Source: Minisyncoccota bacterium
Lineage (GTDB): Bacteria > Patescibacteriota > Minisyncoccia > Phycocordibacterales > UBA9973
Direction: 5' to 3'
DNA: 64,000 nucleotides
NCBI GenBank assembly: GCA_041662205.1
Contig: JBAZSZ010000001.1
Coordinates: forward strand, 159,107-223,106
Part shown: in pieces, positions 2,828 to 49,374 of the stretch
Position numbering within the stretch: position 1 is the stretch's first letter
Layout of the letters: each line of letters begins with the position of its first letter
Notes under the pieces: model-generated
Databases searched by the model: none
What the model was told of the DNA's origin: nothing
What the model saw: only the letters and a program-made list of their open reading frames with translations
Position numbers and translations under genes: made by a program

Positions 2828-4015
2828 CTATTTAAATTTTACAGAAGACGCTCTTTTAATTGTGTTGTTTCCATGTTTTTTTCTGATTTTATCTGCGACT
2901 TCTTCTACGATAAGTTTTTGAAGTTCTTTTTCTTGTTTTCCAAAGAGATCCATAGGAATTTCTTCTTCTCTGGTTAAGTTGTGTAGGATTACCCCAGTTG
3001 AGCGAATTCGCTCTTTACTCTTTAGAATTTTAGGCAACATTGGCTCAAGGGCATTTAATATCACTCCTGGATCTGCTGTATAAAAAGATAATTTTACCTC
3101 ATCAAAATAATATTTAAATTCACTGGTTTTTACGAAAAAAGATATTTTATTACTGACTAGGTGGATGGATCTAGCTCTCTCGCAGGCATGTTCTGCATTT
3201 TCAGCAATTTCCCTCCAAATAACTTTGGGGTGAGTAGAGGCAGGATGAAAAGTGCCAGTGGCTTGAATTGATTTTTGACTTCGAGGATCGACATTATTTT
3301 CAACTTCTAAAATATTTTCTCCGGCAAGTTCTTTCTTTAGAACAAGAAGTGGCCGAGAAAATCTTTTTTCAATTTCTTTATTTTCATACATCATAAAATC
3401 ATAAGCATTTCTGATACCTAGATTTTGTAAATCTGGAACTGTTTTTCTGCCGATACCCCAAATATCATCTATCGGTGTAGCTTTTAGTGCACGAATTTCA
3501 TCTTCTTTCGAAAGCAATAAAACCATCCCATTGGGTTTTTCAAGTTTTGAAGCTTGCTTGGCAAGTGCTTTGGTGCGAGCTAATCCTAGAGAATAAGTTA
3601 CCTTGAGTTTTTCTTCTATTTCTTTTTTTAAGGCAGTAAGTAGTTGTTTTTCTCCGCCAAAGTATTTAACTTCAGCGGGTTCCACTAGGGCGAAACATTC
3701 ATCGATACTATATTCTTCTATTGTCCCAAAATAAGATAAAAGTATTTGGTGCATTTTCTCTTGAATATTTTTATATAAATCAAAATGATGATTGAGAATG
3801 ATGACTTCTGGATATATTTTTTTTATTTTAAATACCGGCATCCCTCTCGTCACTCCGAGTTTCTTGGCCTCAGGGCTCATGGCCACAGCGATACCTCTGT
3901 CACCACCTACGATCACAGGTAGTCCTCGTAGCTCTGGCTGGACAGTTAGCTCGCAGGCTACAAAGAATGAGTCTCCGTCTGCGTGGAGAAAAAGGTTTTC
4001 TGACTTGGTGGGCAT
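2828..4015 (-). CDS. dinB: DNA polymerase IV (Y-family)
   Basis: N-terminal LFLHADGDSFFVACE and DIWGIGRKT motifs are typical of DinB/UmuC polymerases. Confidence 0.85.
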   Translation of the reverse strand: MPTKSENLFLHADGDSFFVACELTVQPELRGLPVIVGGDRGIAVAMSPEAKKLGVTRGMPVFKIKKIYPEVIILNHHFDLYKNIQEKMHQILLSYFGTIEEYSIDECFALVEPAEVKYFGGEKQLLTALKKEIEEKLKVTYSLGLARTKALAKQASKLEKPNGMVLLLSKEDEIRALKATPIDDIWGIGRKTVPDLQNLGIRNAYDFMMYENKEIEKRFSRPLLVLKKELAGENILEVENNVDPRSQKSIQATGTFHPASTHPKVIWREIAENAEHACERARSIHLVSNKISFFVKTSEFKYYFDEVKLSFYTADPGVILNALEPMLPKILKSKERIRSTGVILHNLTREEEIPMDLFGKQEKELQKLIVEEVADKIRKKHGNNTIKRASSVKFK

Positions 4016-4065
4016 TTAGCTATTATACTATCTTTGATTTGATAAGTTTGTAGGGAAGACAATAG

Positions 4066-4111
4066 AATAAAAAAAATAGGGCTGGTTACTTAAGAAAAAA
4101 GTAGCCAGCCC
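4066..4111 (-). terminator. Rho-independent terminator downstream of the dsrC/tusE-like gene
   Basis: On the minus strand a GGGGCTGGCTAC...GTAACCAGCCC hairpin is followed by a T-run. Confidence 0.5.
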
Positions 4112-4126
4112 CTAATCATTTAACTA

Positions 4127-4462
4127 TTACATACAGCCTGAAGGTTTCTGAAGTCCAGCATATTTACAGGACTGTTTTACAGGACCTTTAGGATAAAGCT
4201 TATAAAGATATCTCGTATTTCCTTTTTCTGGCCCTAAAGCCTTAATTGTTCTCCTTATAATACTAGAGAACAAAGGAACAGTCTTGCGTACCTCATAATA
4301 TTCTCTGAGAAAATTGATAATCTCCCAGTGATCCGGCGTAAGATCGATGTTATCCTGCTTTGCCATGAGTGTCGCTAAGTCTGCCGTCCAATCATAGAGA
4401 TTAAGGAGATAGCCTTCATCATCAACCTCGATTTGTTTGCCCTGAAAATCTATTGTTCCCAT
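4127..4462 (-). CDS. DsrC/TusE-family sulfur-relay protein (two-cysteine DsrC type)
   Basis: 111 aa. The C-terminus CKYAGLQKPSGCM matches the DsrC CK..GLPKPTGCV pattern, with both cysteines spaced by 10 residues. Confidence 0.75.
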   Translation of the reverse strand: MGTIDFQGKQIEVDDEGYLLNLYDWTADLATLMAKQDNIDLTPDHWEIINFLREYYEVRKTVPLFSSIIRRTIKALGPEKGNTRYLYKLYPKGPVKQSCKYAGLQKPSGCM

Positions 4463-6581: not shown

Positions 6582-6777
6582 CTGACAAAGATTACGGGGA
6601 ACGCTTCGCGTGTAAAGTTTACGTGGTCACAAGTTACTAAATTTTTTATTTCTTAAAATTATAAAAAATGTAAGTACTTGCTGACCCCGGCTCGGCTATT
6701 TTTCTTCTGAAAAATTATGCCTGCGCCTTCACAAACGGCTCGCAAATAAAGCAGTTTATTTGGCTTTGCGCCGTTTG

Positions 6778-6849
6778 TGACCCTACGCGGAATCGAACCG
6801 CGATTCCATCCTTGAGAAGGATGTGTCCTAACCGTTAGACGATAGGGCC
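6778..6849 (-). tRNA. tRNA-Glu (anticodon CUC)
   Basis: Manual cloverleaf on the minus strand: acceptor GGCCCTA/TAGGGTC, anticodon loop TTCTCAA, T-arm CGCGG-TTCGATT-CCGCG. 72 nt, no CCA encoded. Confidence 0.85.
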
Positions 6850-19283: not shown

Positions 19284-19318
19284 GAGCGTGTAGTTCAGTG
19301 GTAGAACGCTGTCCTGAT
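19284..19318 (+). pseudogene. 5' half (acceptor through anticodon loop) of a second tRNA-Ile-like gene
   Basis: GAGCGTG-TA-GTTCAGTGGTAGAAC-G-CTGTC-CTGATA. Positions 8-37 are identical to the intact tRNA-Ile. Its acceptor strand pairs with the 3' fragment at 19485-19519. Confidence 0.5.
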
Positions 19319-19366
19319 ATAACGAATACAATATAAACGGTTCGCTCGCCGATTATAAAAACAAAT

Positions 19367-19438
19367 GTGTCTGTAGTTCAGTGGTAGAACGCTGTCCTGA
19401 TAAGACAGAGGTCGAAGGTCCGATTCCTTCCAGACACA
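19367..19438 (+). tRNA. tRNA-Ile (anticodon GAU)
   Basis: Complete cloverleaf: acceptor GTGTCTG/CAGACAC, anticodon loop CTGATAA, T-arm GAAGG-TCCGATT-CCTTC. 72 nt, no CCA encoded. Confidence 0.85.
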
Positions 19439-19484
19439 CATGAAATACATTTATTTTTTACATACAGCTCACTGCCGTTTATAA

Positions 19485-19519
19485 GACAGAGGTCGATGGT
19501 CTGATTCCATCCACGCTCA
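19485..19519 (+). pseudogene. 3' half (anticodon-stem 3' strand through acceptor) of the second tRNA-Ile-like gene
   Basis: GACAG-AGGTC-GATGG-TCTGATT-CCATC-CACGCTC-A. Its acceptor strand is complementary to the GAGCGTG of the upstream 5' fragments. The T-stem differs from the intact gene by compensatory changes. Confidence 0.5.
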
Positions 19520-19593
19520 CTTGTATAAATTTCGGAGTTACTTTTGAAATAAAAAAGGGTGAAATTTTATCAAAAATATGGTATAATGAATGT

Positions 19594-45292: not shown

Positions 45293-45363
45293 GGGCGATT
45301 AGTTTAGTGGTAGAACGAAGGCCTCCAAATCCTTTGGCGGGGGTTCGATTCCCTCATCGCCCG
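45293..45363 (+). tRNA. tRNA-Trp (anticodon CCA)
   Basis: Cloverleaf: acceptor GGGCGAT/ATCGCCC, anticodon loop CTCCAAA, T-arm GGGGG-TTCGATT-CCCTC. 71 nt. Confidence 0.85.
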
Positions 45364-45473
45364 CAGGACGATAGCAAGCAAACTGCTTTGCTTGTGTGAG
45401 GGAAGCGAAAAGCTTTTCATAATTCAGCAAAGCTGAATTGAAAAGGTATGCTGTTTCTGTAAGGAAAGATTAC
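45364..45473 (+). other. About 110-nt hairpin-rich insert following tRNA-Trp, homologous to the insert after tRNA-Leu
   Basis: Contains the caagcaaa-ctgc-tttgcttg and ttcagc-aaa-gctgaa hairpins. Roughly 60-70% identical (estimated by eye) to 49196-49281 in the tRNA-relative orientation. Confidence 0.45.
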
Positions 45474-45488
45474 CCCTCATCGCCCGCA
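45474..45488 (+). repeat. Duplicated 3' end of tRNA-Trp (ccctcatcgcccgca)
   Basis: Exact 15-nt copy of the tRNA T-stem 3' strand plus acceptor 3' strand, in direct orientation about 110 nt downstream. Confidence 0.6.
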
Positions 45489-46971: not shown

Positions 46972-47825
46972 AGTCTTTTTATTATAACAGATTTTGATGC
47001 GTCAAACCATTTTATTTCCTTATCCCGCTTGAACCATGTTATCTGGCGTTTGGCATATTTTAAAGTTTCAGTAATCACTGTTTCTGGTGTTGGATTATAG
47101 TATTCAAAGCCCAATTCTTTTAGTCGCTTATCTGAAATACCCTCTTTTTTAAGTTTTTTTATTTCATTAAGTAGTCCGTCCTTAAACATTTTTTTTACTC
47201 TTTTTTCCACTTTCTTTTTTAATTTATCTGTCGGTAAAAATAATCCAATTTTAATAAATTTATACGGCGGAGGCGTTGCCTCCGCCGTAGGGACTTTGCC
47301 TAGAGTCTTGGCTATTTCTATCGCTCTGATGAGTCTGACTTTATTTTTAGTGTCTATGTTATCAGCGCACCTTCGATCTAGTTTTTTTAATATTTTTAAT
47401 AATTCTGTTAATGATTTTTTTTCTAAAATTTTTCTTAACTTTATATTTGGTGGTACTTCTGGGAAAATGATTCCTTTAGTAATAGCGTCAATATAAAATC
47501 CTGTTCCTCCGCAAATGATGGGCGTATTGCCACGAGCTAGTATTTCTTTTATTTTTTCTTCCGTTAATTCTTTATATTTTGCAACTGTAAATTTACGTTT
47601 TACATTTATCACGTCAAGTAAATAATGTGGAATACCCTTCATTTCCTTTTTTGTTATTTTTCCCGTACCGATATCAAGACCTTTATAAACTTGTCTAGAA
47701 TCAGCAGAAATAATCTCACCATTAACCTTCTTGGCGATTTTGACAGCTAAATCACTTTTGCCAGTAGCTGTTTGTCCTAAGATTACAATAATCTTAGGCT
47801 TCCGCAAAAAGTTTCTTTTCTTCAT
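46968..47825 (-). CDS. miaA: tRNA dimethylallyltransferase
   Basis: P-loop ILGQTATGKS and MiaA-type core. Confidence 0.85.
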   Translation of the reverse strand: MKKRNFLRKPKIIVILGQTATGKSDLAVKIAKKVNGEIISADSRQVYKGLDIGTGKITKKEMKGIPHYLLDVINVKRKFTVAKYKELTEEKIKEILARGNTPIICGGTGFYIDAITKGIIFPEVPPNIKLRKILEKKSLTELLKILKKLDRRCADNIDTKNKVRLIRAIEIAKTLGKVPTAEATPPPYKFIKIGLFLPTDKLKKKVEKRVKKMFKDGLLNEIKKLKKEGISDKRLKELGFEYYNPTPETVITETLKYAKRQITWFKRDKEIKWFDASKSVIIKRL

Positions 47826-47829
47826 ATGC

Positions 47830-49161
47830 CTATTTTAAAATTTTAATATCCGCGCCAATTGTATTTAGTCGCTTGGCTATTCCTTCATAACCGCGATTTA
47901 TCATGTATACATTTCGAAGTATTGAAGTTCCAGGGGCTGCCAACATAGAAATAAGAATAACCATAGATGGACGAAGAGCAGGCGGACACACGACTTGAGC
48001 TGCTTTGAGCGGTGTTCCACCTTGAATATAAACTCGATGAGGGTCAGCCAGGGTAATACTTGCTCCTAGTCGATTTAGCTCGGTAAAATAAATTGCTCGA
48101 TTTTCATAAACCCAATCATGGATCATGGTTTGGCCCTTTGCACGAATTGCGATAGGAACAAAAAAGGGAAGATTATCTATATTTATTCCAGGGTAAGGGT
48201 TTGAATGAATTTTATCCTCTAAAGCTACTAATTTACTAGGAAATATTTCAATATCTGTAAGTTTTGTCCTACCATTGTATGAATAATATTTCTTCAGAAT
48301 TTTATATTTCAAATTCATCCTTTTTAATTTTTCAAGTTCCAACGAAAGAAAATCTATCGGGCATCTAGTGATAGTGAGTCTTGAGTCTGTAATTATACAA
48401 GCGGAAATAAACATCATAGATTCAATAGGATCTTCACTATTCCAGTATTCAATATCTTTATTTATTTCTTTGATTCCGTGGACTATCAAAGAGGCGGTGC
48501 CGATTCCTTCTATTTTCACACCCAATGCTTCAAGAAAGAAACAAATTTCCTGTACCATATAGTTTGCGCTAGCGAAACTTATTGTGGTCGTGCCGTCTAT
48601 CAAAGCGGCTGCAGTTAAAACGTTTTCACAAGCGGTATCCCCAGATTCATACATTATGATCTCTGCCGGGTTTAATTTTTTTGAACTAATTTCATAATTT
48701 TCTTCAGTAGTTTTTATTTTTACACCAAGTTTTTCCAAAGCGTAAATATGGGCAGCGATAGTGCGTCTTCCTAAATTGCATCCCTGTGCGTGAGGCAAAG
48801 AAAAAGAAGAGAGTGTGTGAATGAGTGGTCCTATTAGCATGACAACCGAACGTGTCTTGATAGCTGACTCGACGTTTATATTTTTTAAATCAAATTTTTT
48901 GGGAGGGGTGATAATTACAGTATTTTGATCTTGCCATTTAACTTTCACATCGATACTTTCTAGTATCTCGATCACCCTATAAACTTCTTCAATCTTGGCA
49001 ATGCCGTGCAGGGTAGTCGTGCCTTTATTCAACAAAGAAGCGCAAAGAAGCCCTACTGAGCCGTTCTTAGAGAAGTTAGTTTTAATGCTTCCACTCAATT
49101 TCTTCCCGCCATTTACTTTGAAATCAGTGGAATTACTTAATTGTATTTTTTTGTTTTCCAT
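47830..49161 (-). CDS. murA: UDP-N-acetylglucosamine 1-carboxyvinyltransferase
   Basis: EPSP-synthase-fold MurA signatures along the length of the protein. Confidence 0.9.
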   Translation of the reverse strand: MENKKIQLSNSTDFKVNGGKKLSGSIKTNFSKNGSVGLLCASLLNKGTTTLHGIAKIEEVYRVIEILESIDVKVKWQDQNTVIITPPKKFDLKNINVESAIKTRSVVMLIGPLIHTLSSFSLPHAQGCNLGRRTIAAHIYALEKLGVKIKTTEENYEISSKKLNPAEIIMYESGDTACENVLTAAALIDGTTTISFASANYMVQEICFFLEALGVKIEGIGTASLIVHGIKEINKDIEYWNSEDPIESMMFISACIITDSRLTITRCPIDFLSLELEKLKRMNLKYKILKKYYSYNGRTKLTDIEIFPSKLVALEDKIHSNPYPGINIDNLPFFVPIAIRAKGQTMIHDWVYENRAIYFTELNRLGASITLADPHRVYIQGGTPLKAAQVVCPPALRPSMVILISMLAAPGTSILRNVYMINRGYEGIAKRLNTIGADIKILK

Positions 49162-49168
49162 TTTTTTA

Positions 49169-49195
49169 CTTACTCTGTGCCCAGGGAGAGAATCG
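49169..49195 (-). repeat. Duplicated 3' end of tRNA-Leu plus 9 nt of its 3' flank (27-nt direct repeat of 49282-49308)
   Basis: Exact copy of cttactctgtgcccagggagagaatcg, located just upstream of the murA start codon. Confidence 0.6.
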
Positions 49196-49281
49196 GCTAT
49201 TACATAGCCAGGTGATTTTCGGCTTCATTTTATTCAGCAACGAAAATCCTTTCGATTCCTCCACGTAAGCAAATAAGTTTG
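49196..49281 (-). other. About 86-nt insert between tRNA-Leu and its duplicated 3' end, homologous to the tRNA-Trp insert
   Basis: Hairpins GTAAGCAAA-CTTA-TTTGCTTAC and ggctat-tac-atagcc; the shared GTGGAGGAATCGAAAGGATTTTC block also appears in the Trp insert. Confidence 0.45.
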
Positions 49282-49290
49282 CTTACTCTG

Positions 49291-49374
49291 TGCCCAGGGA
49301 GAGAATCGAACTCTCATGATGTTGCCATCAATAGATTTTGAGTCTATCGCGTCTACCAATTCCGCCACCTGGGC
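49291..49374 (-). tRNA. tRNA-Leu (anticodon CAA), type II with a long variable arm
   Basis: Acceptor GCCCAGG/CCTGGGC, anticodon loop CTCAAAA, variable hairpin TGATGGCAACATCA, T-arm GAGAG-TTCGATT-CTCTC. 84 nt. Confidence 0.85.

Follow-up and report, generated by a model that had tools for sequence, protein, structure and literature searches.

The window analysed here, a stretch of 64,000 nucleotides from a Minisyncoccota genome, contains two copies of an apparently undescribed family of small, structured elements, one behind tRNA-Leu(CAA) and one behind tRNA-Trp(CCA). We read these, with a probability of roughly 0.6, as protein-less, non-autonomous mobile insertion elements of Patescibacteria, which are specific for the 3' ends of tRNA and tmRNA genes and insert by a guide-based mechanism. 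A literature search found no description of such a family. All data considered below are metagenome-assembled genomes (MAGs) or metagenome contigs.

Two homologous inserts in the window

The tRNA-Leu(CAA) gene lies on the minus strand (49290/49291-49374; ARAGORN, and Rfam tRNA at 61 bits), with its T-loop at 49304-49310, its T-stem 3' strand at 49299-49303 and its acceptor 3' strand at 49292-49298. The initial annotation had described a 27-nt duplication made up of 18 nt of the tRNA and 9 nt of its flank; a repeat search of the window bears this out and extends it by 4 nt, to a 31-nt direct repeat with one mismatch (49165-49195 and 49278-49308). The proximal copy (49278-49308, minus strand) covers tRNA positions about 56-74 and 12 nt of flank, and the distal copy (49165-49195, minus strand) reads C-GATT + CTCTC + CCTGGGC + A + CAGAGTAAGTAAA. 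The latter does lie directly upstream of murA, its end being 7 nt before the ATG (49159-49161) of an ORF that encodes MurA (PF00275).

The 86-nt insert between the tRNA-Leu 3' end and the distal copy is made up, on the minus strand, of hairpin H1 (49266-49285; TAAGCAAA-CTTA-TTTGCTTA), a block antisense to the T-stem and T-loop (49251-49264; GT + GGAGG + AATCGAA), hairpin H2 with the junction ACCTG (49209-49249; GGATTTTCG ... CGAAAATC, with a variable apex) and hairpin H3 (49196-49208; GCTAT-GTA-ATAGC, with a conserved GUA loop), all three hairpins being predicted folds. The antisense block reads as the reverse complement of TTCGATT-CTCTC(C) in tRNA-Leu but lacks one base, and in the predicted fold its positions 49251-49262 pair with the distal repeat copy. 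The 12-nt flank part of the proximal repeat copy doubles as the 5' strand of H1.

The tRNA-Trp(CCA) gene (45293-45364, plus strand; ARAGORN and Rfam) is the target of the second copy. Its repeat, CCCTCATCGCCCGCA, is found at 45351-45365 and 45474-45488, and the insert occupies the region 45365-45488 on the plus strand. It opens with an anti-acceptor segment (45366-45372, GGACGAT), which is antisense to ATCGCCC, the acceptor 3' strand, at 6/7 positions and comes 3 nt after it, leaving a minimal cap; the Trp counterpart in L001 has a complete anti-acceptor segment, CTGCGGGCGA, behind a 20-nt palindromic cap. There follow H1 (45375-45394; CAAGCAAA-CTGC-TTTGCTTG), the anti-T block (45396-45409; GT + GAGGG + AAGCGAA), H2, the junction GTATGCTG and H3 (together 45413-45466), and GATT-AC with the distal direct copy CCCTCATCGCCCGCA of the tRNA-Trp 3' end (45468-45488). 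H2 consists of CTTTTC ... GAAAAG around the apex hairpin AATTCAGC-AAA-GCTGAATT, and H3 is TTTCT-GTA-AGGAA; all three hairpins are predicted folds that are also part of the covariance model. Within the anti-T block, GAGGG complements the T-stem 3' strand CCCTC exactly and does not repeat the sequence of the 5' strand, GGGGG; a near-complement of the T-loop comes next.

That the two inserts are homologous, as had been proposed from shared blocks, is confirmed by a 46-nt inverted match of 78% identity (45373-45418 against 49242-49287) and by similarity that runs on to the distal repeat. A covariance model from which the Leu copy had been left out gives this copy 69.9 bits (E=7e-18), so that coincidence, already doubted in the initial annotation, is left far behind; the Trp copy, which is in the seed alignment, scores 111.7 bits. 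The spacing between repeats is 86-108 nt in the two window copies, and no further position of the 64-kb window exceeds 14 bits by the covariance model. The trailer of tRNA-Glu (6687-6776) has an H1-like hairpin with an identical loop and was left uncounted as a third copy because it scores only 12.8 bits (E=0.1). Fragments flanking tRNA-Ile break in the anticodon loop and represent a separate phenomenon.

No ORF lies inside the element, and the nearby genes are housekeeping genes. A scan of the window with Rfam 15 at the gathering score returned only tRNAs and no match to the element, and neither ARAGORN nor Rfam called a tRNA within the inserts. Promoter and terminator scans gave nothing above shuffled expectation within the elements, and neither window copy has an intrinsic terminator (GC-rich hairpin plus T-tract) on the tRNA strand. 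Given this lack of a terminator and its position between tRNA-Leu and murA, the Leu copy is probably co-transcribed with both.

A family behind tRNA and tmRNA genes of Patescibacteria

Searching for the shared blocks at other tRNAs, as the initial annotation had suggested, recovered further copies and turned the proposed family of tRNA-targeting miniature elements into a sizeable one. A motif scan combined with the covariance model (matches counted at E<=1e-3) found 81 further copies in Patescibacteria MAGs from 69 sources. Sixty-seven of them lie at most 150 nt downstream of a tRNA or tmRNA gene, with more than 15 anticodons represented; three lie behind another element and six at locus edges. 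The tmRNA genes, confirmed by Rfam, had previously been missed as targets. The motif scan gave at least 118 matches, about 55 of which lie 24-170 nt behind a tRNA on the same strand in Patescibacteria MAGs, and there was no long version of the element among these at least 118 matches.

The elements are about 100-190 nt in size, protein-less and rich in hairpins, and every copy follows a common plan: tRNA, H1, the anti-T-stem 3' strand with the anti-T-loop, H2, H3 and a direct copy of the segment from the T-loop to the tRNA 3' end. Three modules are constant: H1, which stands between AG and YGU; H2, which has a bulged U and an apex that varies; and H3, whose loop is GUA. In most copies a palindromic cap comes between the tRNA and H1, followed by an antisense version of the acceptor 3' strand, the latter a feature that had escaped notice; the cap includes a T-tract in 28 of the 53 copies outside the window. 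Unlike these, the Leu copy of the window lacks both cap and acceptor-strand complement. Both window copies display the whole of the family model, namely H1, the antisense T-arm block, H2, H3 and the distal T-arm copy, immediately 3' of a tRNA or tmRNA gene.

Each element matches its own target

Around the constant modules, each element carries an inverted copy of the 3' third of its tRNA, comprising the acceptor 3' strand, the T-stem 3' strand and the T-loop and split by H1 at the acceptor/T-stem junction, together with a sense segment that directly copies the tRNA from T-loop G57 to about nucleotide 76. The pattern GTG..GGAA.CGAAA, earlier listed as a block shared by the two inserts, reads as the reverse complement of the T-stem 3' strand and T-loop in the tRNA that it follows. 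Of 53 copies, 42 have an anti-T segment that complements the T-stem 3' strand of their own tRNA without a mismatch (shuffled pairings: mean 9.2, maximum 18), 20 have an exact anti-acceptor 7-mer (1.2, maximum 6), and 33 have a distal copy that matches over the T-stem 3' strand and 4 nt of acceptor strand (2.0, maximum 7). The 5' segments run on to complement the T-loop and nucleotides 74-76 as well; a tRNA with the T-loop TTCGACT, for example, is followed by an element with AGTCGAA and a distal GACT.

Because their ends equal acceptor and T-stem strands, the elements superficially resemble a tRNA with a replaced middle, as expected of a degenerate tandem tRNA duplicate; a chance or segmental local duplication without any family would be a related explanation. 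We consider both extremely improbable. Among 15 informative cases, 13 have an anti-T segment complementary to the 3' strand and none has one that copies the 5' strand; neither a cloverleaf nor copies of tRNA 5' strands were found, no tRNA is called in the elements, and a non-tRNA core is common to elements at unrelated tRNAs. The strand analysis, the family size and the core identity at unrelated tRNAs refute this reading.

Two simpler origins of the antisense segments were likewise rejected. Copying from mature tRNA, in the manner of a retroviral primer-binding site, is contradicted by the antisense following the gene-encoded nucleotides 74-76 (CAA, CAC, CCC) rather than CCA. A plain snap-back copy of the tRNA end is insufficient as a complete explanation because H1 always interrupts at the acceptor/T-stem junction.

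A covarying fold

The alternative offered by the initial annotation, a conserved RNA structure in the tRNA trailer, also captured part of the truth, inasmuch as a covarying secondary structure is conserved across the family. All pairs of H1 (9/9) and of H3 (5/5) covary family-wide, H2 has a covarying G-C/A-U pair in the family alignment, and H1 of the Leu copy shows a compensatory A-U to G-C change in L001. In the alignment fitted to the covariance model, from which the covariation counts derive, 97.3% of cells form pairs against 75.3% in shuffled and about 50% in slid controls, and 348 cells carry double changes against 72.7 in shuffled ones. RNAalifold recovered H1, H2 and H3 with compensatory changes on an independent MAFFT alignment, and fold z-scores are -3.1 and -4.0. 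The functional form may be either RNA or DNA, as the helices contain only 31 G-U against 16 A-C combinations.

These hairpins, the conservation of single-stranded nucleotides across the family and the way in which the antisense segment tracks the tRNA would also be expected of a non-mobile, cis-acting RNA module, namely a trailer cassette that serves 3' processing, termination or insulation, or a switch whose antisense segment has the tRNA end and the downstream copy as alternative pairing partners. Such a module would be inherited and co-evolve with its tRNA gene, with recurrent losses through deletions between the direct repeats. Consistent with it, T-tract caps are rarer ahead of a co-oriented gene (12:3 versus 7:10, Fisher p=0.036, with crude ORF calls), a bias that suggests selection on transcription, and the Leu-type element keeps about 84% identity across hosts that differ in synteny. 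However, in most copies a terminator-like cap stands between the tRNA and the remainder of the element and would thus prevent co-transcription with the tRNA. This and the distribution of filled and empty sites described below make the cis-acting module, in our view, an unlikely account of the family.

Filled and empty sites

The elements are absent from most orthologous sites. Among the relatives used for the comparison of MurA/tRNA-Leu synteny, both tRNAs are filled in L001, whereas in L002, L005, L127, L128 and L130 tRNA-Leu lies 5-20 nt from the murA ATG, i.e., the sites are empty at the same synteny. An unbiased sample, ascertained by the tRNA alone, contained 9 filled and 104 empty sites; by the covariance model, the element is carried by 8/93 tRNA-Leu and 2/24 tRNA-Trp genes, or about 8-9%. 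Filled L182/L221 and empty L185 share a common flank, which in the filled alleles follows the distal copy. A metagenome search for the exact empty allele of the window species, with tRNA-Leu joined to this murA start, returned none. These comparisons show that the element is an insertion, which leaves the tRNA intact and restores a tRNA 3' end next to the flank that lay downstream before, and that a minority of orthologous sites is occupied. An inherited cis-acting module sits poorly with such low occupancy and with close relatives that mostly have empty sites.

The same module is at odds with the relationships among cores. Cores are 90-93% identical at Lys versus Thr, Arg versus Trp and Trp versus Arg tRNAs, and these near-identical cores at unrelated tRNAs carry wholly different target-matched segments; conversely, a single tRNA type can have two core lineages, as at tRNA-Leu sites (L204 versus the rest). 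Independent copies are also found stacked, with a diverged second element behind the distal copy of the first in L109. Concerted evolution within genomes was rejected as the source of the core similarity, since identity within loci equals that between loci. Copies within a genome are no closer than random pairs (0.47 versus 0.48) and so give no direct sign of a recent within-genome jump. Tandem near-identical copies occur in L035 and L076; these can stem from unequal crossing-over between direct repeats and hence are no evidence of transposition. Mosaicism between resident elements is seen in L103 versus L108, and recombination of this kind could mimic retargeting.

Integrases and parental elements

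A direct repeat from the T-loop to the tRNA end is reportedly also a feature of T-loop-class att sites (Williams 2002, cited in PMC9897764), and tRNA and tmRNA genes are classical integrase targets. A phage or island integrated at the T-loop and carrying the tRNA 3' end could therefore, after internal deletion, have left attL/attR arms as a scar; the proximal copy with its flank is indeed sometimes unlike the native-looking distal copy (CCA versus CAA in L087, L096, L118 and L015). We nevertheless judge this origin improbable. There is no integrase in or near any copy examined, and three motif scans of 2.9 million viral contigs found no copy; the sole match, L131, was a chance one with neither tRNA nor element. 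Small size and the three covarying hairpins are common to all 81 copies, a uniformity that independent deletions would not yield, the matched copies occur at more than 15 tRNA species plus tmRNA, and att sites have no inverted target copy.

Pfam searches of the neighbours of multi-copy loci revealed no recombinase and no reverse transcriptase, and Rfam at E<=1 on four elements matched only tRNA and tmRNA, with no ribozyme or other family. Neither an autonomous parent element, a parent insertion sequence nor a candidate enzyme was found.

A possible mechanism

If the elements are mobile and non-autonomous, they may locate the T-loop-to-3'-end segment of tRNA and tmRNA genes by complementarity, with the inverted copy acting as a bipartite guide around H1, and insertion would duplicate this segment. 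Against this reading, the distal copy ranges in length from 9 to 27 nt, which does not agree with a fixed staggered cut. Catalysis might be provided by some enzyme acting in trans or by recombination of the host following uptake of DNA. In the transcript, the inverted and direct copies are predicted to pair into a mimic of an acceptor/T-stem minihelix, which RNase P and RNase Z could cleave, and we propose that insertion would thereby be harmless to the tRNA and to the expression of murA.

The complete scheme, in which a gene-less element or its RNA bears a bipartite antisense guide on a scaffold hairpin, both the antisense and the sense target copies are written at insertion, and a tRNA-end mimic that hijacks RNase P/Z silences the insertion, is put forward tentatively, with odds that we place well short of even. 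Should both target copies indeed be written at insertion, the guide would be re-templated by each new target and the element would retarget itself. We know of no such self-retargeting in any transposon, intron or integrative element.

Implications

Patescibacteria have tiny genomes with few recognised mobile elements, and a family of this kind was thus unexpected among them. The elements colonise, harmlessly and while encoding nothing, the most conserved sites on offer. If antisense guides are re-written for each target, this would constitute a new principle of target choice; if, instead, a trans-acting integrase moves the elements, the finding shrinks to a variant of tRNA-targeting integrative elements. 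The guide idea is directly testable, because the target is nucleotide-exact and natural 'reprogrammed' variants as well as filled and empty alleles exist. In practical terms, the distal copies are tRNA fragments able to confuse tRNA annotation and island-finding tools, the elements probably alter the transcripts of downstream genes such as murA, and they may serve as a marker for strain-level population genetics in uncultured lineages.

Comparison with known systems

Tyrosine-integrase elements of the T-loop sublocation class likewise target the 3' part of tRNA and tmRNA genes, regenerate the tRNA and are bracketed by a direct repeat from the T-loop to the 3' end, the displaced copy keeping the native flank. 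They are kilobases long, whereas the elements described here measure 100-190 nt, have neither integrase nor cargo, vary in the length of the distal copy and were not found in viral contigs. The inverted target copy split by a hairpin and the covarying hairpins further set them apart; of the hallmarks of attL/attR, the bracketing tRNA 3' repeat is present, but the integrase and the kilobase cargo or full-length relatives are not.

With MITEs and other small repeats (Correia, RUP, BOX, REP/BIME), the family shares its small, non-coding and structured nature, several copies per genome, a patchy, presence/absence distribution among relatives and ends that are mutually inverted repeats. Unlike in MITEs, these inverted ends reproduce whichever target the element occupies and vary among copies, so that no terminal inverted repeats are shared family-wide; there is one defined functional target site, with a 9-27-nt duplication instead of a short one of fixed length, and no parent insertion sequence was found.

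HDV-like 'theta' ribozymes in phage tRNA arrays and hammerheads are small ribozymes 3' of tRNAs and, by analogy, similarly compact structured RNAs directly behind a tRNA gene. The present elements differ from both in their duplicated and antisense tRNA ends and in the lack of an Rfam match to such families at E<=1.

Acceptor/T-stem helices are substrates of RNase P, RNase Z and the CCA-adding enzyme, and tRNA-like structures or minihelix mimics are known from the tRNA-like domain of tmRNA, mascRNA and viral RNAs. The predicted fold, in which the 5' antisense segments pair with the distal copy, would similarly place an acceptor-like helix on a T-stem-like helix, with strands that are real tRNA sequences. 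In contrast to those structures, H2 and H3 replace the T-loop, H1 replaces the D/anticodon arm, and many copies, the Leu copy of the window among them, lack the acceptor part.

Finally, guide-bearing mobile elements comprise IS110/IS1111 with their bridge RNA, group II introns with EBS-IBS pairing and IS200/IS605 with guide-hairpin ends. Unlike these, the elements neither encode nor are linked to a recombinase, reverse transcriptase or TnpA, and their complementarity spans at least 20 nt and covers one target segment twice. The analogy would lie in the architecture, in which a target-complementary segment stands beside scaffold hairpins, is divided into two parts around a hairpin, and combines one antisense with one sense target segment.

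Homologous inserts behind two tRNA genes

The window carries four tRNA genes according to ARAGORN and Rfam: tRNA-Glu(CTC) (6777-6849, minus strand), tRNA-Ile(GAT) (19367-19439, plus strand), tRNA-Trp(CCA) (45293-45364, plus strand), and tRNA-Leu(CAA) (49290-49374, minus strand). The duplicated tRNA-Leu 3' end reported in the initial annotation was recovered by repeat search as a 31-nt direct repeat with one mismatch (49165-49195/49278-49308), spanning 18 nt of the tRNA 3' end plus flank. The ATG of the 443-aa MurA ORF (47830-49161, minus strand) lies 7 nt beyond the end of the distal repeat. At tRNA-Trp, the repeat CCCTCATCGCCCGCA occupies 45351-45365 and recurs at 45474-45488. Pairwise comparison bore out the proposed homology of the two inserts (hereafter, the Leu and Trp copies): 46 nt adjoining the tRNAs are 78% identical, and similarity is recognizable up to the distal repeats.

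The host, a Paceibacterota/Nomurabacteria-like member of the Patescibacteria, has a low-GC genome (~35%), and the genes around both copies are housekeeping ones (ddl, alr, rpmG, Vut_1 transporter, miaA, murA, parB, relA/spoT, and topA). A terminator scan picked out a 12-bp GC-rich hairpin, TACGGCGGAGGCAACGCCTCCGCCGTA, within the miaA ORF (47263-47289, minus strand). MurA orthologues (protein P0012, many others, and L125 5001-6509) are often ~500 aa long, with an N-terminal XRE-type helix-turn-helix fused to the enzyme. The flanks of tRNA-Ile (19300-19320 and 19479-19522) are partial self-copies, the upstream one running from the D-arm to the anticodon loop and the downstream one (~80%) from the anticodon loop to the 3' end. 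Unlike the T-loop elements described here, both break in the anticodon loop; they could have been left by an integration event in the anticodon loop or by an intron.

A family of elements in Patescibacteria

We scanned one genome per species in GTDB with the block common to both inserts, GTGNNGGAANCGAAANGNTTTTC, a query biased toward TTCGATT T-loops and Arg tRNAs sharing TTCGATT. At least 118 matches were obtained; among those listed, ~55 were in Patescibacteria MAGs, every one 24-170 nt downstream of a same-strand tRNA, in line with the tRNA-targeting family suggested earlier, and the remaining listed matches were chance occurrences inside genes of other phyla. A covariance model, R1, built from 14 family members with the Leu copy left out, detects exactly two copies in the window (Trp, 111.7 bits; Leu, 69.9 bits; next match, 14 bits) and 81 copies across 69 sources. 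tmRNA genes also bear elements of identical build. All element sequences come from MAGs or metagenome contigs, with record labels including Paceibacterota, Nomurabacteria, Taylorbacteria, Shapirobacteria, Minisyncoccia, and Parcubacteria; the label Saccharibacteria, used by some submitters, was not relied on.

No ORF was found inside the elements, and the flanking genes examined were housekeeping only. No Rfam family matches any of four elements searched at E ≤ 1, three motifs recovered no copy from IMG/VR (the one match, locus L131, being due to chance), and we found no description of the family in the searchable literature.

Architecture and target-matched segments

Read on the tRNA strand, the order of parts is common to all copies. 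The tRNA is followed by a palindromic cap (often an A-tract, GC hairpin, and T-tract, sometimes 3-6 nt only); the reverse complement of the acceptor 3' strand, discriminator, and next 3 nt (anti-acceptor); AG, hairpin H1 (7-9 bp, loop mostly CUGC), and Y-GU; the reverse complement of the T-stem 3' strand and whole T-loop (anti-T; e.g., GTAGGAATCGAA versus TTCGATTCCTAC); A(A/G)G; hairpin H2 (CUUUUC...GAAAAG, with a bulged U and variable apex); a short junction, GUAUACUG or CACCYG; hairpin H3 with a GUA loop; (A)GAU(U); and a distal direct copy of the T-stem 3' strand plus a variable length of the acceptor 3' strand. Thus, the "conserved block" of the initial annotation is shared by both inserts and represents the tRNA's own T-arm reversed. 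The Leu copy is a short variant without cap and anti-acceptor; in the Trp copy, the cap measures 3 nt and the anti-acceptor is represented by GGACGAT (6/7 match). The orthologue of the Trp copy in the related genome L001 has the full CTGCGGGCGA after a 20-nt palindrome. In the tRNA-Glu trailer (6687-6776, minus strand), the hairpin CAAATAAACTGCTTTATTTG is near-identical to H1 of elements L026, L032, and L035. This trailer is without antisense block, H2, H3, and distal repeat and scores 12.8 bits with R1 (E = 0.1); its hairpin may be a decayed element relative.

The matches are specific to the adjoining tRNA. Among 53 elements, an exact 5-nt reverse complement of the element's own T-stem 3' strand occurs in 42 (shuffled pairings: mean 9.2, maximum 18), an exact 7-nt anti-acceptor in 20 (mean 1.2, maximum 6), and a distal copy of the T-stem 3' strand plus 4 acceptor nucleotides in 33 (mean 2.0, maximum 7). 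Where the two T-stem strands are imperfectly complementary, the element is complementary to the 3' strand in 13 of 15 cases, and in none (0/15) does it equal the 5' strand; it is therefore an antisense copy rather than a tRNA duplicate. Degenerate tRNA duplication or chance, refuted by this strand bias, by the 81 R1 copies, and by cores shared at unrelated tRNAs, has a negligible probability. The match reaches the T-loop (tRNA-Gly with TTCGACT has an element with AGTCGAA and distal GACT) and passes the discriminator: in 18 of 18 cases with an 11/11 match, the antisense follows nucleotides 74-76 as the proximal copy encodes them (CAA, CAC, CCC, or CCA). This, together with the native-looking flank of the distal copy (CAA or CAT), rules out copying from mature CCA-tailed tRNA. 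In a few elements (L026 and L109), the anti-acceptor agrees more closely with a different tRNA allele than with the local one, and in L068, anti-acceptor and distal copy agree mutually, not with the tRNA.

Conserved structure

The conserved structure considered earlier finds support in the family. From 40 elements aligned with plain MAFFT, RNAalifold predicted H1, the base of H2, and H3, with compensatory double changes in 15 of the 20 predicted pairs. In the alignment fitted to the R1 model, pairs are formed in 97.3% of cells (75.3% when shuffled), double-change cells number 348 (versus 72.7), and sliding partners by 1-3 columns gives ~50% pairing. Minimum-free-energy folds of both window copies (z-scores -3.1 and -4.0) contain H1, H2, H3, and a long-range helix between anti-T block and distal copy; an acceptor-like helix is also predicted for the Trp copy. 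An A-U pair in H1 of the Leu copy is replaced by G-C in L001, a compensatory change. The ratio of G-U pairs to A-C mismatches in the helices (31 to 16) mildly favors RNA on the tRNA strand; the functional form could also be folded single-stranded DNA.

Elements of kilobase size are known to leave fragments of tRNA genes where they integrate (PMC9897764). An integrase scar would account for the direct repeat and the choice of tRNA and tmRNA genes, but not for the uniform miniature size, covarying hairpins, and antisense copy; with no integrase or viral counterpart found, we regard this origin as improbable.

Filled and empty sites

The synteny parB/tRNA-Leu/murA/miaA...tRNA-Trp is kept in relatives. 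Genome L001, with a 91% identical MurA, contains both elements; in L002-4, L005-6, L127, L128, and L130, the murA ATG lies 5-20 nt after tRNA-Leu, and tRNA-Trp, wherever present, is without insert. In an unbiased sample of metagenome contigs, for which only the T-arm and 3' end of tRNA-Leu(CAA) served as query, 9 of 113 evaluable genes were filled and 104 empty; R1 on the first 100 metagenome loci located elements at 8 of 93 tRNA-Leu and 2 of 24 tRNA-Trp genes (8-9% carriage). One filled/empty pair has a common flank: AAAGTTATCCACAGTTGCAATATCTC directly follows the tRNA in empty L185, and AGAGTTATCCCCACTTGCATTATCTC follows tRNA, element, and repeat in filled L182/L221 (82% over 60 nt). Therefore, native flank follows the distal copy. 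Relative to an empty site, a filled one has gained the element and a single additional tRNA end. The element is an insertion and represents the minority state.

In another group of genomes, DnaA-box-like TTATCCAC(A) and the palindrome ATATCTCATATATGAGATAT occur after empty tRNA-Leu in L185, L132, and L135 and after the distal repeat in L182/L221, and tRNA-Leu adjoins parB in the window; in these lineages, the replication origin could be close to tRNA-Leu. In L125 (3713-4373), a LAGLIDADG-type ORF (3954-4373) lies just downstream of tRNA-Leu(CAA), between parB and murA, as another occupant of the neighborhood held by the element elsewhere.

Indications of movement between targets

Cores, i.e., elements minus their target-matched segments, are 90-93% identical across genomes between Lys(UUU) and Thr(GGU), Arg(GCG) and Trp, and Trp and Arg(GCG), with unrelated anti-acceptors and caps. 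Identity between copies at different tRNAs of a single locus is no higher than that of randomly paired copies (0.47 versus 0.48); hence, the shared cores are not explained by gene conversion within genomes. Two core lineages occur at tRNA-Leu, the GGUGUACUG/UUCCUGUAGGGAA type of L204 and the UCACCUG/GGCUAUGUAAUAGCC type of the others; L118 combines the 5' half of a Trp-type element with a 3' half of Leu type; and L103 and L108 are alike in tRNA, cap, and anti-acceptor (59/60 nt), with different H1 and H3 and unrelated outer flanks. The modules are mosaic.

Loci L109 and L078 each have a further, diverged element behind the distal copy of the first; hence, the 3' fragment alone suffices as a target. 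Near-identical tandem copies (L035 and L076) can be explained by unequal crossing-over between repeats and were not counted as evidence of transposition. Stacked, partial, or nested pieces at L076 (1-300), L036 (2380-2520), and L064 (3200-3290) include repeated fragments of H3 plus distal end as well as an additional module, AAGCGTACTCGCGG/ACATGTACTCATGG, ahead of the distal copy, and point to repeated events at one site. A vertically inherited cis-acting RNA cassette would account for the structure of the element, but leaves the 8-9% carriage, empty relatives, shared cores at different tRNAs, and stacked copies unaccounted for, and we consider it unlikely.

Discussion

The elements are inserted exactly at the 3' end of tRNA and tmRNA genes, leaving the tRNA intact, duplicate the segment from the T-loop to ~nt 76, and contain its antisense copy; their scaffold hairpins show covariation, they are carried patchily and at low frequency, and related cores occupy unrelated targets. 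We favor the reading that they are non-autonomous mobile elements, with a probability of roughly 0.6. More tentatively, the two antisense segments, one on each side of H1, would pair with the target 3' strand, forming a three-way junction at tRNA positions 65/66 that would place the element at the segment from T-loop to 3' end, which insertion would duplicate; we hold this combination of details to be possible rather than probable. The catalyst could be an unlinked recombinase or host homologous recombination following DNA uptake, anchored by the tRNA body on the left and the repeat on the right. The latter route would explain how tRNA-specific lineages cross host lineages, but not retargeting. 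At a new tRNA, the antisense segments might be rewritten by templated correction of a quasi-palindrome formed with the tRNA end or by a copy-choice step during insertion.

Because murA lies 5-20 nt after the tRNA in empty relatives, it is probably transcribed through tRNA-Leu and, in the window, through the element, which has no terminator there. Pairing of antisense block and distal copy is predicted to rebuild an acceptor/T-stem-like helix just upstream of murA. Acceptor/T-stem minihelices are established substrates of RNase P and RNase Z; should both enzymes accept the predicted helix, the downstream RNA would be released as before. By crude ORF calls, a T-tract in the cap is less common ahead of a co-oriented gene (12:3 versus 7:10, p = 0.036), consistent with selection on transcription.

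Overall, the element behaves like an insertion element that is site-specific and non-autonomous. Its target and repeat recall tRNA-integrating islands; its size and patchy presence recall MITEs; its target complementarity beside scaffold hairpins recalls guide-bearing elements (bridge RNAs, intron EBS sites, and IS200/605 ends); and its predicted minihelix recalls tRNA-like RNAs. Since it fails defining features of each of these systems where testable, we rate it as a new class, which a trans-acting integrase, if found, would demote to a new variant of tRNA-targeting integrative elements.
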